The position numbers and the translations under genes were made by a program. Shown piece after piece: positions 45,762-47,912 of a DNA stretch of 64,000 bases. The stretch comes from a phage: NCBI GenBank assembly GCA_026683435.1, contig GCA_026683435.1_4866.1; one strand, 5' to 3'. Each line of letters starts with the position of its first letter. Positions within the stretch are counted from its first letter, which is position 1. Under the pieces are notes generated by a model. That model saw only the letters and a list, made by a program, of their open reading frames with translations. It had not been told where the DNA came from and searched no databases.

Positions 45762-46277
45762 TTAGATTTTAACTAGCTTGCTCCAATCGATGGGTTGTTG
45801 CTTAACCACTTTAACGGTACCACGTGTCGGTGACCAGAAGGTGATATCAGGCTGGTTGCGTACGTCAACATGCAGCCAGGTAATATCGCACTCGATAAAG
45901 TGAATAAACGGAAACTCGTTAGGGTTCGCGGCAATATAGTCGTGTACTTTCTGCAACGGAGTATCAAGCATTGTTGCATCAAACGCATTACCGAATTTAT
46001 GCATACTGCCCGATTCGGCGTACAGTTTGTTTGCACGAGTTTGCCAATCGCCACCCTTTGGTTTCTCTTGATTAATAAAGAACTGCAGGGTACGCAGACT
46101 ACGCTGTTGCTGGGAACTGGTTAAAATCACCATCCGCCCAAAACGATTACGAATCTGTTGGAGCGAGATTAGCAGTAACGGATTAAGGAAACGAATAGCA
46201 CCTTCGCCGTATTTCGCGATGTACTCCTGCGGCATCAACTCTTTTAACGCGAAGTTGGCAGGATTCGGATGAAACAT
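45762..46277 (-). CDS. M15-family (VanY / L-Ala-D-Glu peptidase-like) zinc peptidase, putative cell-wall hydrolase
   Basis: SGSMHKFGNAFDATM (S-x-H-x2-G-x-A-x-D) and WLHVDVR (second His/Asp) fit the M15 zinc-ligand motifs. Confidence 0.5.
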   Translation of the reverse strand: MFHPNPANFALKELMPQEYIAKYGEGAIRFLNPLLLISLQQIRNRFGRMVILTSSQQQRSLRTLQFFINQEKPKGGDWQTRANKLYAESGSMHKFGNAFDATMLDTPLQKVHDYIAANPNEFPFIHFIECDITWLHVDVRNQPDITFWSPTRGTVKVVKQQPIDWSKLVKI

Positions 46278-46286
46278 TTTCTCTCC

Positions 46287-46928
46287 TTAAGGGGCAGTCA
46301 GGAACGCACGTTTGATATTCAAATACTGCACGTTTACCGGTTGCCCATTAGTAATGTCAACACGTTCGTGTTCAGGAATCGCTAACGTACGCGACGTTCT
46401 AAAGAACAGGTAGTTGCGATTATAGGACAACGTCTTTTCTACCGGCCGGCTATAAACCACTTTAGAGTTATCGTCTACATAGGACGGCCAACCAAACTCG
46501 TGAACGGCACGGTAGAAGGACTTACGAATAAAGGTGTCAACGCCTAATGCCTCCATGATGCGTAAGAACATCAGGTCAGCGAATGTTTTGTCGCAAGCAC
46601 GAGATAGATTACCTTCAACGGTGTCAGGGTAAAAGCCTACCGATGAACGTTTCTGGTAAAACAAATCATGCACACAAGCGGCAGCAGCCCAAGGCCCATC
46701 CGGATGCAGGATAGGACGTAACGCTTCTGGAATGCTTGCCAGGTCCGTCACAAATCCTTTCGGTACCGTTACCCATAACGGGGTATCCGGATGCACACCT
46801 GCTAATGCTACCATCGCATCCATTCCGGCGTGTTCACGATAGAGGCTGCGCAACGTAAACTCGAAATGGAAATCATCCGTGAGGATAAACCACGGCTTCT
46901 CTAACAACTTATACTTAAGTGCTTCCAT
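46287..46928 (-). CDS. DUF1353-like protein
   Basis: VPKGFVTDLASIP matches the characteristic G-F-x-T-D-x-A-S-I-P motif of DUF1353. Confidence 0.45.
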   Translation of the reverse strand: MEALKYKLLEKPWFILTDDFHFEFTLRSLYREHAGMDAMVALAGVHPDTPLWVTVPKGFVTDLASIPEALRPILHPDGPWAAAACVHDLFYQKRSSVGFYPDTVEGNLSRACDKTFADLMFLRIMEALGVDTFIRKSFYRAVHEFGWPSYVDDNSKVVYSRPVEKTLSYNRNYLFFRTSRTLAIPEHERVDITNGQPVNVQYLNIKRAFLTAP

Positions 46929-47216
46929 ACTGACCTCACGTCATATAACGCACGAGCATCGTGAGGACCATTAATCCCAGTAAAATGGGCATTAAGCCTT
47001 TCGGCCAGTCGTCGTTGTCGTATTGCATGGCTTTACCCTCCGACAGAAGATCGCGCGTAATAGTTTGAAGAACCCAGAATCGTAATACGTTTCCGGAACG
47101 GTTTGTACTTCGGGGAACTTAGGCGGAGTTGGACGGTGGGTCATTACGTTTTCTCCTTGCGGCAAAAACAAGGGCGCGCCAGATAGCTTTCATTAAGGCA
47201 GCAAACCAATTCTGTT

Positions 47217-47834
47217 TCATTTGCACATCCCCAACTTAGCCACGTAGTCTGGCATTTCCTGATAGACGCGGCCATACCAGCCGTAAGTAAACTCTTCGTT
47301 ATCCTCACGCCCTTCACTGATTTCCGTGTAGTACGCAACCTGATGACAGGTTAAAGCGAACATCAGTCGATTCAGGCCCTCTTCCCCACGGGCTTTGATG
47401 AAGCCTTCTAACGCTGTTAACGTACGTGGCCCGATACCACCATCGGCATCGATATCATCGTATAGTTTACCCTGACGGTTTAATACGTTCAGAATACGTT
47501 GCAGGGACTTGATACAGTTACCGCGTCCTGCGTTGATGCCGAAGTCAAACATCCGGTCAGCTAGCAGGACATTCATTTTCATAATCTGGTCTAAGCGCAT
47601 CCGCTGCCACCAGAGCTTGTTGTAAATGTCTAACGCGATTTCTAAGCTCAGGTCACGCATATCCCCTTTATAGCCATATTCTCGCGCAGTGAGTTCAGTG
47701 ACACCGCGGTTCGTTGCTTTGCCCAAATCTTTCGGGTTATTAACGTAACCGGCTTCGATGTTTACTTTGGCACGAATAATGCCCTCTTTACTCCAACGAT
47801 CGACCACGATAACCTCCTGAGTTGATAGGGTCAT
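47217..47834 (-). CDS. GH108-family endolysin (lysozyme-like) with C-terminal peptidoglycan-binding region
   Basis: EAGYVNNPKDLGKATNRGVT...FDFGINAGRGNCIKSLQRIL...DADGGIGPRTLTAL matches the GH108 EGGY..D.GG.T..GIT / D..N.G...A.K.LQ / DG.IGP.T pattern. ORF track starts at 47870, but that N-terminus would be encoded by the upstream terminator hairpin; ATG 47832-47834 preferred although it lacks a clear SD. Confidence 0.6.
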   Translation of the reverse strand: MTLSTQEVIVVDRWSKEGIIRAKVNIEAGYVNNPKDLGKATNRGVTELTAREYGYKGDMRDLSLEIALDIYNKLWWQRMRLDQIMKMNVLLADRMFDFGINAGRGNCIKSLQRILNVLNRQGKLYDDIDADGGIGPRTLTALEGFIKARGEEGLNRLMFALTCHQVAYYTEISEGREDNEEFTYGWYGRVYQEMPDYVAKLGMCK

Positions 47835-47866
47835 AAAAAGAAAGCCTCTTCCCCGTGGGGAAGAGG
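47835..47866 (-). terminator. rho-independent terminator
   Basis: CCTCTTCCCC / GGGAAGAGG stem, loop GTG; minus strand followed by CTTTCTTTTTA. Confidence 0.6.
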
Positions 47867-47912
47867 GCATGGATTATCTTTAGGCTTTAAACCCGTCAAG
47901 TTCCTCGTTAAA

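Follow-up and report, generated by a model that had tools for sequence, protein, structure and literature searches.

A candidate lysis cassette with a GH108 muramidase, a predicted phospholipase A2 and three micro-ORFs in an SPN3US-like jumbo phage

Classical lysis cassettes of phages infecting Gram-negative hosts comprise a holin, an endolysin and i- and o-spanins, as in Klebsiella phage Seifer and in phiKZ (gp142-gp144 plus spanins). Their soluble endolysins need a membrane lesion, and genes for small membrane proteins crowd around the endolysin gene and are expressed late. In Seifer, whose endolysin is of the GH108 family, a membrane protein and an o-spanin lie downstream of the endolysin, and the phiKZ cassette contains a class III holin whose cytoplasmic domain is large, along with a regulator (gp143) and the SLT-type gp144. 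Mycobacteriophages encode LysB, an alpha/beta-hydrolase, cutinase-like esterase that acts on the mycolyl-arabinogalactan linkage, and phage PhiKT encodes gp28 ('disruptin'), a cationic membrane-disrupting lysis peptide of 56 aa. TtsA, from the typhoid-toxin islet of Salmonella Typhi, is a muramidase with a preference for LD-cross-linked peptidoglycan. For Wolbachia phage WO, a lytic cassette with a putative patatin-like phospholipase A2 (PLA2) has been proposed as a hypothesis only, a sister genus having GH108 instead (PMC9203015). The typhoid-toxin islet also encodes, as its fifth gene and alongside ttsA, the founding DUF1353 member TtaP, for which experiments reported in 2024 established phospholipase A2 activity, with hydrolysis of phospholipids at sn-2 (PMC11525133). 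TtsA-dependent toxin release also requires perturbation of the outer membrane, and deletion of ttaP in S. Typhi gave no envelope or secretion phenotype (PMC11525133).

We analysed a 64,000-nucleotide stretch of DNA (hereafter the window) from a Seoulvirus (SPN3US-like) jumbo phage, the SPN3US type being a giant Salmonella phage, in which the same two enzyme families are encoded together. The features of the locus are as follows.

47845..47866, minus strand: intrinsic-terminator-like hairpin followed by CTTTCTTTTT (terminator scan)
47832..47835, minus strand: conserved non-coding TATG(A) motif, putative phiKZ-type late promoter (cross-genome comparison)
47813..47818, minus strand: AGGAGG Shine-Dalgarno sequence (sequence reading)
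47217..47807, minus strand: GH108 and PG_binding_3 endolysin, SPN3US gp156 (Pfam, PDB sequence matches, start-codon comparison)
47119..47220, minus strand: micro-ORF a, 33 aa, MKQNWFAALMKAIWRALVFAARRKRNDPPSNSA
46992..47144, minus strand: micro-ORF b, 50 aa
46936..47028, minus strand: micro-ORF c, 30 aa, MQYDNDDWPKGLMPILLGLMVLTMLVRYMT
46287..46928, minus strand: DUF1353 protein, SPN3US gp157, 213 aa, predicted PLA2 of the TtaP type (Pfam, residues, fold)
45762..46277, minus strand: predicted LAS-fold, M15-like zinc peptidoglycan peptidase, SPN3US gp158, 171 aa (homologues, zinc ligands, fold)
45639..45669, unstranded: 13-bp GC-rich hairpin (terminator scan)

As in the typhoid-toxin islet, neither the muramidase nor the DUF1353 protein has a signal sequence. 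The phage pair lies in a putative lytic operon together with three micro-ORFs and an M15-like peptidase, whereas the islet pair works in toxin release without lysis. At 213 aa, the phage PLA2 is longer than TtaP (125 aa), with beta regions added at both termini. The locus resembles the classical cassettes in its soluble endolysin and in the small genes, presumably expressed late, that are packed against it. In contrast to them, it has no known holin or spanin family member and no lipobox protein, it carries a phospholipase and a second murein hydrolase in the downstream positions, and its transmembrane protein is just 30 aa long; no part of it corresponds to the phiKZ holin, gp143 or gp144. 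With LysB and phage WO it shares a lipolytic enzyme in the lysis module, presumed to attack the membrane layer beyond the reach of murein hydrolases, but the folds differ, since gp157 has a group-XIV-like helical PLA2 core and the WO enzyme is a patatin. Micro-ORF a, like PhiKT gp28, is short, strongly cationic and located in a (candidate) lysis cluster, at 33 rather than 56 aa. Each part of the candidate cassette belongs to a known kind; their combination varies the usual lysis cassette.

Transcription unit and start of the endolysin gene

The endolysin gene, micro-ORFs a, b and c, the DUF1353 gene and the M15-like peptidase gene form a minus-strand unit between the two hairpins. The upstream hairpin (fold about -17 kcal/mol, -16.9) has a 9-bp stem and a tetraloop followed by a T-run and terminates the upstream DUF7941/GP38-domain gene (47913..50090); an equivalent hairpin and T-run were found 5' of the endolysin in all relatives inspected. 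The downstream hairpin (about -29 kcal/mol) separates the convergent genes for gp158 (minus) and the lipoprotein gp159 (plus) and is likely a bidirectional terminator that closes the operon. Neighbouring genes of the unit overlap or lie close together, and each is preceded by a ribosome-binding site or shares a start-stop overlap with the gene before it. The order GH108-(micro-ORFs)-DUF1353 is common to four genera (Seoulvirus, Erskinevirus, Machinavirus and Wellingtonvirus), while the DUF1353 genes of CR5 and pVa-21 do not lie beside a GH108 gene.

Directly 3' of the upstream T-run, and including the database-annotated ATG at 47834, is a TATGA motif that is kept in 10 of 10 loci compared, among them CR5, where it lies 5' of the DUF1353 gene. 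Its ATG is out of frame or followed by a stop in 7 of the 8 endolysin loci of relatives. The late promoters of phiKZ are TATG, with G as +1 (PMC4666361), and by analogy TATG 47832..47835 may serve as a late promoter, transcription then beginning at G 47832 (+1). The pattern TTTATGAC is not enriched in the window (1 match vs 2.9 expected), so the promoter assignment draws solely on cross-genome conservation and on the phiKZ analogy.

Three starts are available to the endolysin, namely GTG 47807 (196 aa), the annotated ATG 47834 (205 aa) and the ATG of the longest ORF at 47870 (217 aa). The AGGAGG sequence lies 5 nt 5' of GTG 47807, and comparison with relatives suggests that this codon, the homologue of their starts, is most likely used; ATG 47870 and ATG 47834 are unlikely starts, and the annotated gene is probably 9 codons too long. 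The initial annotation had called the start ambiguous; the hairpin on which it based this is a real terminator-like element, but the comparison largely settles the matter in favour of GTG 47807. Initiation at ATG 47870 would translate the hairpin.

Three predicted enzymes acting on the cell envelope

On 47217..47870, the Pfam families Glyco_hydro_108 (PF05838; E = 9.1e-18, 65.0 bits vs a cut-off of 21.2) and PG_binding_3 (PF09374; E = 6.1e-19, 68.4 bits vs 24.6) were both detected above their cut-offs, and the NCBIfam model 'holin-associated N-acetylmuramidase' matched below its cut-off (2.6e-16). The closest solved sequences were 6V3Z ('Sen1395', 1.7e-41) and 6V40 (5.5e-39; named 'PG_binding_3 domain-containing protein' by its depositors), and the endolysin stretch I-E-A-G-Y aligns with k-E-G-G-Y of both entries, matching the E of the E-G-G-Y motif, which is presumably the catalytic residue of the GH108 family. 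We take the two entries to be the structures of the prophage muramidase Sen1395 and of TtsA (Geiger et al. 2020). Judged by these matches, the endolysin is a soluble GH108 muramidase of the TtsA/Sen1395 class. No signal sequence or transmembrane segment was found in it, in gp157 or in gp158. A SAR endolysin was considered and rejected, the protein being without an N-terminal hydrophobic segment.

The second enzyme, gp157, matches DUF1353 (PF07087) with E = 1.2e-17 (63.7 bits vs a cut-off of 22.5). TtaP has the catalytic residues H70, D71 and D85 (PMC11525133), and among 43 homologues of gp157, H87 and D88 never vary and D118 is kept in at least 90%; from the Pfam domain common to both proteins we infer that H87/D88/D118 are equivalent to the catalytic H-D...D of TtaP. 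A profile search of the PDB with the DUF1353 alignment gave nothing meaningful, and fold comparison alone worked: the best solved-structure match is a fungal PLA2, and the helical core of gp157 is superposable on the group XIV PLA2 structures 1LWB and 4AUP. Its N- and C-terminal beta extensions are phage-specific and missing from bacterial homologues. Group XIV enzymes are recognised by a secretion signal or propeptide and two disulfides; gp157 lacks an N-terminal hydrophobic segment, and the four Cys are missing from TtaP-type enzymes (PMC11525133). By these features gp157 is a relative, not a member, of the group XIV secreted PLA2 enzymes (SvPLA2, TbSP1), and it is predicted to be a TtaP-type phospholipase A2. 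The label 'tail assembly chaperone' that databases give to DUF1353 phage proteins is probably wrong.

The gene for gp158 has an AAGGAG Shine-Dalgarno sequence and begins 9 nt beyond the PLA2 stop codon. On its own sequence the Pfam M15 score was 16.8 bits, below the gathering score of 23.2, whereas PF08291 matched 12 of 18 close homologues (best 6.8e-8). A zinc triad H-x6-D...H (H93, D100 and H136, with D138) is invariant across the family. A PDB search with a profile of the M15-like alignment again returned nothing meaningful, and it was fold comparison that placed the protein in the Hedgehog/DD-peptidase fold, with the Streptomyces DD-peptidase 1LBU as best structural match and <25% identity to any solved structure. 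The homologues, the invariant zinc ligands and the fold confirm gp158 as a predicted LAS-fold zinc peptidase. It shares fold, H...D...H triad and lysis context with the LAS endolysins (the T5 L-Ala-D-Glu peptidase, Listeria Ply500 and Bacillus LysB4, as well as Serratia ChiX with its holin-dependent secretion), but its sequence is very divergent, and it stands as a second hydrolase beside a muramidase rather than as the sole endolysin.

These results bear out the GH108 call of the initial annotation (at 47217..47834) and its DUF1353 gene. Its M15-like peptidase holds through homologues, zinc ligands and fold rather than through the protein's own Pfam score. It had left the DUF1353 gene, correctly placed in its family, without a function, although TtaP is an experimentally shown PLA2 (PMC11525133).

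We further surveyed the DUF1353 genes of other phages. The genes for endolysin, DUF1353 protein and holin follow one another in Fusobacterium phage FNU_1P, the DUF1353 gene overlaps the endolysin gene in Pseudomonas phage Cygsa01, and in an Aquificae virus it precedes a putative holin and a lytic transglycosylase on the same strand by about 0.6 kb. In a metagenomic phage contig (L022), GH108 is followed by a 29-aa ORF with a transmembrane domain (TMD) and then by DUF1353. Among the 128 nearest ORFs at 35 non-redundant viral loci were 6 with Phage_holin_4_1 and 11 peptidoglycan hydrolases from six families, and DUF1353 genes adjoin tail-fibre genes as often as lysis genes. The bacterial contexts (Caulobacter; metagenome loci L019 and L024) were uninformative on lysis.

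Micro-ORFs between the endolysin and DUF1353 genes

The ATG of micro-ORF a overlaps the endolysin TGA (ATGA). Its product, which is cationic (+6), consists of an amphipathic helix and then RRKR, with a hydrophobic moment of 0.53-0.61 (melittin, 0.55). It is the most conserved of the three, being found in SPAsTU, pEa_SNUABM_29, phiEaH2 and Asesino, and shows pS of 0.7-1.0 vs pN of 0.1-0.3 in its own frame only. It matches phrog_25143, a family of unknown function (3.4e-12), and the family is limited to its own phage clade, an exhaustive HMMER search having added one spurious repeat protein (P0144). Micro-ORF b, preceded by AAGGAG, shares 26 nt with a and 37 nt with c. Its N-terminus is hydrophilic and variable, and its amphipathic motif D-S-G-F-F-K-L-L-R-A-I-F-x-R-R-V is kept in the same four phages, with pS of 0.68-0.88 vs pN of 0.11-0.15 in its own frame (nine informative pairs). 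Between SPN3US and the window, all substitutions inside these two micro-ORFs are synonymous (4/4 within a and 5/5 across a and b).

Micro-ORF c, preceded by GGAGGG, encodes a protein with a single transmembrane helix between an acidic N-terminus and a short basic C-terminus, and is conserved in SPAsTU and pEa_SNUABM_29 (pS 0.46-1.05 vs pN 0.11-0.27). Its 17-residue Kyte-Doolittle mean of about 2.0 agrees with the single hydrophobic helix that had been noted for this ORF, whereas the maxima for a (1.4) and b (0.5) reflect amphipathic helices only. Single-TMD ORFs of 29-38 aa also lie 3' of the GH108 gene in Machina, Kwan and pEa_SNUABM_11 and in the unrelated contig L022. As judged from the substitution patterns, micro-ORFs a, b and c are coding genes under frame-specific purifying selection. 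The set differs by genus (a, b and c; a and b; one c-like ORF; or none), and pEa_SNUABM_6 has none between the endolysin and PLA2 genes; therefore, the micro-ORFs are dispensable in some relatives. A structured RNA in the 288-bp gap between the endolysin and DUF1353 genes was rejected, there being no Rfam match in the region at E <= 0.1, and we attribute the conservation of this gap to coding selection.

Three conserved micro-genes are absent from most database records; a and b are left out of most genome annotations, b was called as a gene once (a single cluster) among 5.8 billion database proteins, and c is annotated as hypothetical in SPLA1a. The two small ORFs at 46936..47028 and 46992..47144, put forward earlier as the sole holin candidates, are both conserved coding genes, but the third, 47119..47220, had been missed. 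No holin-family homology was found for a, b or c in Pfam or PHROG. The earlier statement that no classical holin is recognisable also stands, no ORF of the lysis region having a holin or spanin match in Pfam, PHROG or NCBIfam, and no CDS being annotated as either in the whole 240-kb genome of the near-identical phage SPLA1a. An i- and o-spanin pair would comprise a type II TMD protein and a lipobox lipoprotein; direct reading of micro-ORFs a, b and c found no lipobox.

A candidate role in host lysis and alternative readings of the locus

We consider it just about probable that the whole region is transcribed late as one unit and serves this SPN3US-like jumbo phage as its host-lysis cassette. 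Transcription would begin at the conserved TATG just 3' of the upstream terminator, with the endolysin translated from GTG 47807, and the three enzymes, having no export signals, would build up in the cytoplasm late in infection. The micro-proteins, unaided or together with a holin that lies elsewhere and has gone unrecognised, might then breach the inner membrane, with c as a minimal holin-like TMD protein; a and b would be membrane-active peptides in the manner of melittin, or regulators. The muramidase would cut the glycan strands of the murein and the peptidase its peptide stems. The phospholipase, probably inactive in the cytoplasm and active after loss of the barrier, would hydrolyse membrane phospholipids and so contribute to the destruction of the inner membrane and of the outer membrane's inner leaflet. 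In classical phages the corresponding step falls to spanins, in mycobacteriophages to the lipid esterase LysB. A stronger version, which we think unlikely, is a self-contained lysis system without holin family or spanins, in which the 30-aa single-helix protein and two cationic amphipathic peptides open the inner membrane and the stored cytoplasmic PLA2, active only after the barrier has fallen, then dissolves the membranes enzymatically. If true, this would be a Gram-negative counterpart of mycobacteriophage LysB, and the same logic would explain the role of TtaP beside TtsA in typhoid-toxin release.

A different role for the phospholipase alone is a real, if minority, possibility: gp157 may be a packaged head or ejection protein that acts on host membranes at the start of infection, sharing with the endolysin only its late timing, with the other genes of the cluster keeping their lytic role. 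The PLA2 of the parvovirus capsid offers a comparison in principle. In mass spectrometry of wild-type SPN3US virions, gp157 carries the comment 'Head' (4 peptides, 9 spectral counts, SC/M 0.37), it is absent from three head mutants (lost in the gp47 and vRNAP head mutants), and its neighbours gp160, gp154 and gp155 are virion proteins (PMC5694885). The frequent position of DUF1353 genes 3' of tail-fibre genes in other phages and the extra terminal domains of the jumbo-phage proteins point the same way. However, 9 counts are few, and in the same study the clearly non-virion gp100 (a thymidylate enzyme) and gp158 reached 4-7 counts, the latter as a trace in mutant preparations only; contamination at the level of gp157 is therefore documented (PMC5694885). 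[quoted passage not shown] Its gene lies between two murein hydrolase genes in one operon with spacing suggestive of translational coupling, and TtaP itself is cell-associated and paired with a muramidase (PMC11525133). The endolysin gp156 has no row among the SPN3US virion protein table rows listed, supplementary tables included (PMC5694885).

The micro-ORFs could instead be regulators (antiholin-like or timing the endolysin) or unrelated small late proteins, with the true holin and spanins encoded elsewhere and the PLA2 and M15 peptidase as accessories; this seems quite unlikely. Three places in the window are candidates by architecture.

11349..11831: holin-like candidate with two TMDs
2251..3255: spanin-like pair of a TMD protein and a lipoprotein, 43 kb away
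6540..6806: further architecture-based candidate

Besides these architectures, the variation of the micro-ORF set between genera, the lack of a true TMD in a and b and the classical cassette of phiKZ (a class III holin and two spanins) are in keeping with such an arrangement. Against it, the distant candidates, 35-45 kb from the endolysin, matched unknown-function families only (PHROG, Pfam, NCBIfam), whereas the micro-ORFs are endolysin-proximal and overlap or closely adjoin the endolysin and one another, and single-TMD mini-ORFs recur 3' of GH108 in an unrelated phage. That late genes were juxtaposed by chance, with the small ORFs as non-coding spacer, is very improbable and already disfavoured: it would account for the absence of a and b from most annotations, but frame-specific selection on all three, their strong Shine-Dalgarno sites, synteny across four genera and the lack of an Rfam match in the region speak against it.

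The term 'lysis region' used in the initial annotation accordingly remains the best reading, though not a proven one. In its favour are the operon anatomy, the identities of the enzymes, the selection on the micro-ORFs, the synteny across four genera, the DUF1353 genes of other phages that lie in lysis contexts and the pairing of TtaP with TtsA. Counting against host lysis are the low-level presence of gp157 in virions, the tail-fibre-adjacent DUF1353 genes, the unlinked genes of CR5 and pVa-21, the lack of micro-ORFs in pEa_SNUABM_6, the absence of holin-family matches for a, b and c and the silent ttaP deletion. With holin-like and spanin-like candidates at other places in the window, the PLA2 does not have to stand in for such proteins.

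The locus offers a concrete six-gene lysis candidate for SPN3US-type giant phages, in whose genomes no holin or spanin is annotated, including an enzyme class, PLA2, that is not established in Gram-negative phage lysis. The muramidase and PLA2 genes as neighbours in a lytic phage operon suggest an inherited functional unit, and a phage module of this sort is the most likely ancestor of the ttsA-ttaP pair in the typhoid-toxin islet. SPN3US, which is genetically tractable and has an existing amber-mutant collection, provides a system for testing the muramidase-PLA2 unit.

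Gene content and enzyme families

A 2.7-kb region around the operon was matched by 34 Seoulvirus genomes at 96-99% identity, among them SPN3US, SPLA1a, MET_P1_082_240, the SPFM series and the coliphages Lh1B and EC001. The genes, in SPN3US numbering where it exists, are:

47913..50090, minus strand: gp155, DUF7941 plus a GP38 adhesin-like domain
47217..47870 (longest ORF), minus strand: gp156, endolysin
47119..47220, minus strand: micro-ORF a, 33 aa, its ATG overlapping the endolysin TGA
46992..47144, minus strand: micro-ORF b, 50 aa, AAGGAG upstream
46936..47028, minus strand: micro-ORF c, 30 aa, GGAGGG upstream
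46287..46928, minus strand: gp157, DUF1353
45762..46277, minus strand: gp158, M15-like
45145..45636, plus strand: gp159, 163-aa lipoprotein, lipobox LLAGC, phrog_9559 (function unassigned)

The initial annotation had named a GH108 endolysin, a DUF1353 protein and an M15-like peptidase. Pfam searches bore out the first two (Glyco_hydro_108, 9.1e-18, with PG_binding_3, 6.1e-19; DUF1353, 1.2e-17). The nearest solved sequences to the endolysin were 6V3Z ("Sen1395", 1.7e-41) and 6V40 (5.5e-39), with which its EGGY-motif glutamate aligned, and which we take to be TtsA-class muramidase structures. The peptidase assignment held at the level of the family, whereas the M15 match of gp158's own sequence was sub-threshold (E 0.0076): gp158 matched phrog_894 "endolysin" (2.8e-26), 12 of 18 homologues matched Peptidase_M15_3 (best 6.8e-8), and R62, H93, D100, H136 and D138 do not vary within the family, so that the LAS zinc triad H-x6-D...H is present. 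Family knowledge suggests muramidase, phospholipase A2 (PLA2) and zinc-peptidase activities, and no export signal was found in any of the three enzymes.

The DUF1353 protein gp157 is a PLA2 homologue. Its relative TtaP, a DUF1353 protein of 125 aa, is encoded in the typhoid-toxin islet together with the muramidase TtsA. The PLA2 activity of TtaP was proven by fluorogenic assay and lipid HPLC, with D85A inactive; its catalytic residues are H70, D71 and D85, and group XIV secreted PLA2s (1LWB, 4AUP) are distant relatives (Gartly et al. 2024, PMC11525133). The N- and C-terminal beta extensions of gp157 are missing from short homologues, and a search for a signal sequence in gp157 found none, whereas some bacterial DUF1353 homologues carry lipoprotein signal peptides.

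Endolysin start, transcription signals and micro-ORFs

The endolysin start had been flagged as ambiguous, and translation from the first ATG (47870) would run through a terminator-like hairpin (47845..47866, then a T-run). The annotated ATG 47834 lies directly 3' of the T-run and lacks a Shine-Dalgarno sequence, while 27 nt downstream AGGAGG-N5-GTG (47807) would yield MVDRWSKEG...; the endolysins of relatives all begin 2-6 residues ahead of the conserved [DA]R[WFL]S[KMR]EG. The TATGA that follows the terminator is conserved but non-coding, because its ATG is stopped or out of frame in 7/8 relatives' endolysin loci, including pEa_SNUABM_29, where a TGA intervenes and the annotated start is GTG. 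Late promoters of phiKZ likewise consist of a TATG whose G is +1 (PMC4666361), and the motif is also present upstream of the CR5 DUF1353 gene; a late transcript may run from G 47832 to a 13-bp hairpin at 45639..45669. The octamer, taken as a promoter motif, showed no enrichment within the window. Further sites with a terminator or T-run followed by TATG, at 14363..14392 and 45050..45071 (minus strand), lie 5' of genes; at one of them, TTTAGTATGC, the TATG stands ~30 nt 5' of the gp160 start codon. Such sites would fit a late-promoter grammar of the phiKZ type in this phage.

Three overlapping ORFs occupy the 288 bp that separate the endolysin gene from the DUF1353 gene. Both small ORFs listed initially (b and c) show coding conservation, but micro-ORF a brings the number to three rather than two. 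In relatives diverged to ~60-80% protein identity, the conserved residues were M-K-x-N-W-F-x-x-L-M-[KR]-A-[IVL]-[WG]-R-A-L-[VL]-x-A-x-R-[RK]-[KQ]-R in a, [DS]-[SA]-G-F-[FL]-K-[LM]-L-R-A-I-[FL]-x-R-R-V in b, and [DN]-N-D-D-W-P-x-G-L-M-P plus a hydrophobic helix in c. Nei-Gojobori counts on informative pairs gave, in the ORFs' own frames:

a: pS 0.7-1.0, pN 0.1-0.3
b motif: pS 0.68-0.88, pN 0.11-0.15
c: pS 0.46-1.05, pN 0.11-0.27

The pS excess was not seen in the other two frames, and all substitutions between SPN3US and the window inside a and b (5/5) were synonymous. The net charge of micro-protein a is +6 and its last residues are RRKR; its hydrophobic moment over 18 residues is 0.53-0.61, versus 0.55 for melittin on the same scale; c has a single transmembrane segment (Kyte-Doolittle mean ~2.0). 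Seoulvirus has a, b and c and Erskinevirus a and b, while Machina, Kwan and pEa_SNUABM_11 have instead one single-TMD ORF of 36-38 aa, and pEa_SNUABM_6 has no micro-ORF between the two genes. Family a did not extend beyond this phage clade when 1.8 billion representatives were searched exhaustively; the micro-proteins form three clade-restricted families with no described function.

On one strand of L022, a high-GC phage-like contig unrelated to the window phage (JGI metagenome Ga0533287_000364, 2371..5432), GH108 is followed by a 29-aa single-TMD ORF that overlaps its end (acidic N-terminus, TMD, basic C-terminus), a protein of 185 aa that carries a hydrophobic segment at its N-terminus, a lipoprotein of 127 aa and, 2 kb downstream, DUF1353. 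The arrangement may represent another muramidase-PLA2 lysis module, independent of the one in the window.

Proposed lysis role and the virion alternative

A lysis cassette is favoured by the operon structure, with three envelope-degrading enzymes devoid of export signals, and by GH108-DUF1353 synteny across four genera. Unrelated phages also have DUF1353 in clear lysis contexts: FNU_1P has the order endolysin, DUF1353, holin; in Cygsa01 the DUF1353 gene overlaps the endolysin gene; and in an Aquificae virus a putative holin gene and a lytic transglycosylase gene follow it at ~0.6 kb. Among the 128 nearest ORFs at 35 non-redundant IMG/VR DUF1353 loci, the commonest Pfams were DUF4376 (7), Phage_holin_4_1 (6), Phage_lysozyme (3), Peptidase_M15_4 (3) and Amidase_3 (2), with SLT, GH108 and M15_3 once each and several tail-fibre PHROGs. 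DUF1353 genes thus typically sit at the tail-fibre/lysis gene junction. Neither the order of Seifer, an ordinary GH108 phage (holin, holin, GH108, membrane protein, o-spanin), nor that of phiKZ (class III holin, regulator, gp144, spanins; PMC12894885) was found at this locus.

The unit would be co-transcribed late from TATG; c, and also a and b, would attack the membrane, the enzymes would then be released into the periplasm, and the PLA2 would finally degrade membrane phospholipids. Speculatively, the PLA2 could be kept inactive in the cytoplasm, for instance by low Ca2+, given that both group XIV PLA2s and the endolysin of T5 depend on calcium.

The lack of a recognised classical holin, noted initially, agrees with the 240-kb SPLA1a genome, in which no CDS is annotated as holin or spanin, but a hydropathy and lipobox scan of the window's ORF list gave candidates elsewhere, on architecture only:

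2740..3255, minus strand: first gene of a spanin-like pair, 171-aa type II TMD protein (N-proximal TMD, helical then Pro-rich)
2251..2730, minus strand: second gene of the pair, directly following, 159-aa lipoprotein, lipobox LLTGC
11640..11831 and 11349..11597, minus strand: consecutive holin-like candidates, two predicted TMDs each
7448..8170, minus strand: SLT transglycosylase, 240 aa, N-terminal signal-like sequence (Pfam 1.4e-6; phrog_4067)

Replacement of holins or spanins by the PLA2 or micro-proteins is thus not established. The spanin-like pair falls only in phrog 8719 and 8165, and the holin-like pair (63 aa with a charged C-terminus, and 67-82 aa; just downstream of an SbcC-like gene) in phrog_16515 and phrog_18173, none with an assigned function. 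PHROG and Pfam gave no function for either pair or for the 2-TMD ORF 6540..6806, and an NCBIfam search of the spanin-like pair found nothing. The 63-aa 2-TMD ORF is absent from the SPLA1a annotation. With the SLT protein, which is apparently exported by itself, the window has three enzymes that degrade murein.

A serious rival is that gp157 is a packaged, ejected PLA2. Published SPN3US proteomics lists gp157 as a wild-type virion protein, comment "Head" (4 unique peptides, 9 spectral counts, SC/M 0.37), undetected in mutants 47(am1), 218(am101) and 244(am84) (PMC5694885). In the same study gp158 and metabolic enzymes, regarded as non-virion, reach 4-7 counts in mutant preparations, so the gp157 signal is near the documented contamination level, yet not dismissible. 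Deletion of ttaP in S. Typhi had no phenotype (PMC11525133), which counts against a lysis role. Virion and lysis roles are compatible, not mutually exclusive.

Each enzyme of the putative lysis operon adds a member to a family already known. In the literature searched, we found no description of a late operon that unites GH108 with micro-proteins, a LAS peptidase and a PLA2 of the TtaP type in a phage without recognisable holins or spanins. The systems that come closest are the ttsA-ttaP islet, LysB of mycobacteriophages and a patatin cassette hypothesised for phage WO; the sister genus of WO has GH108 in place of patatin (PMC9203015).

Flanking genes and genome records

The lipoprotein gene gp159 is convergent with the putative lysis operon, and the terminator hairpin is common to both. 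Homologues occupy the equivalent position in SPAsTU, phiEaH2, Asesino and Kwan and are absent from it in Machina, pEa_SNUABM_6 and CR5; a role in superinfection exclusion is only a guess. Next to it, gp160 (44473..45021, minus strand) has a DUF7941 N-terminal region and is reported to be very abundant in SPN3US heads (>300 copies). On the other side (47913..51424), gp154 is one of the 20 head proteins that make up "paralog family B" (gps 83, 138-154, 161, 237), and gp155, also a virion protein, joins its DUF7941 region to a GP38 adhesin-like Gly-rich domain, which would be odd if gp155 were also a head component, as expected for family B. Several of the SPFM records LR5359xx (SPFM5-8, 10, 12, 14, 15, 20) match the region only as ~40 short pieces, with fragmented, frameshift-like gp157 and gp158 versions, which suggests poor consensus quality rather than real variation. 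Two adjacent radical-SAM genes (41888..43216 and upstream) are kept beside the cluster in all relatives inspected, CR5 included.
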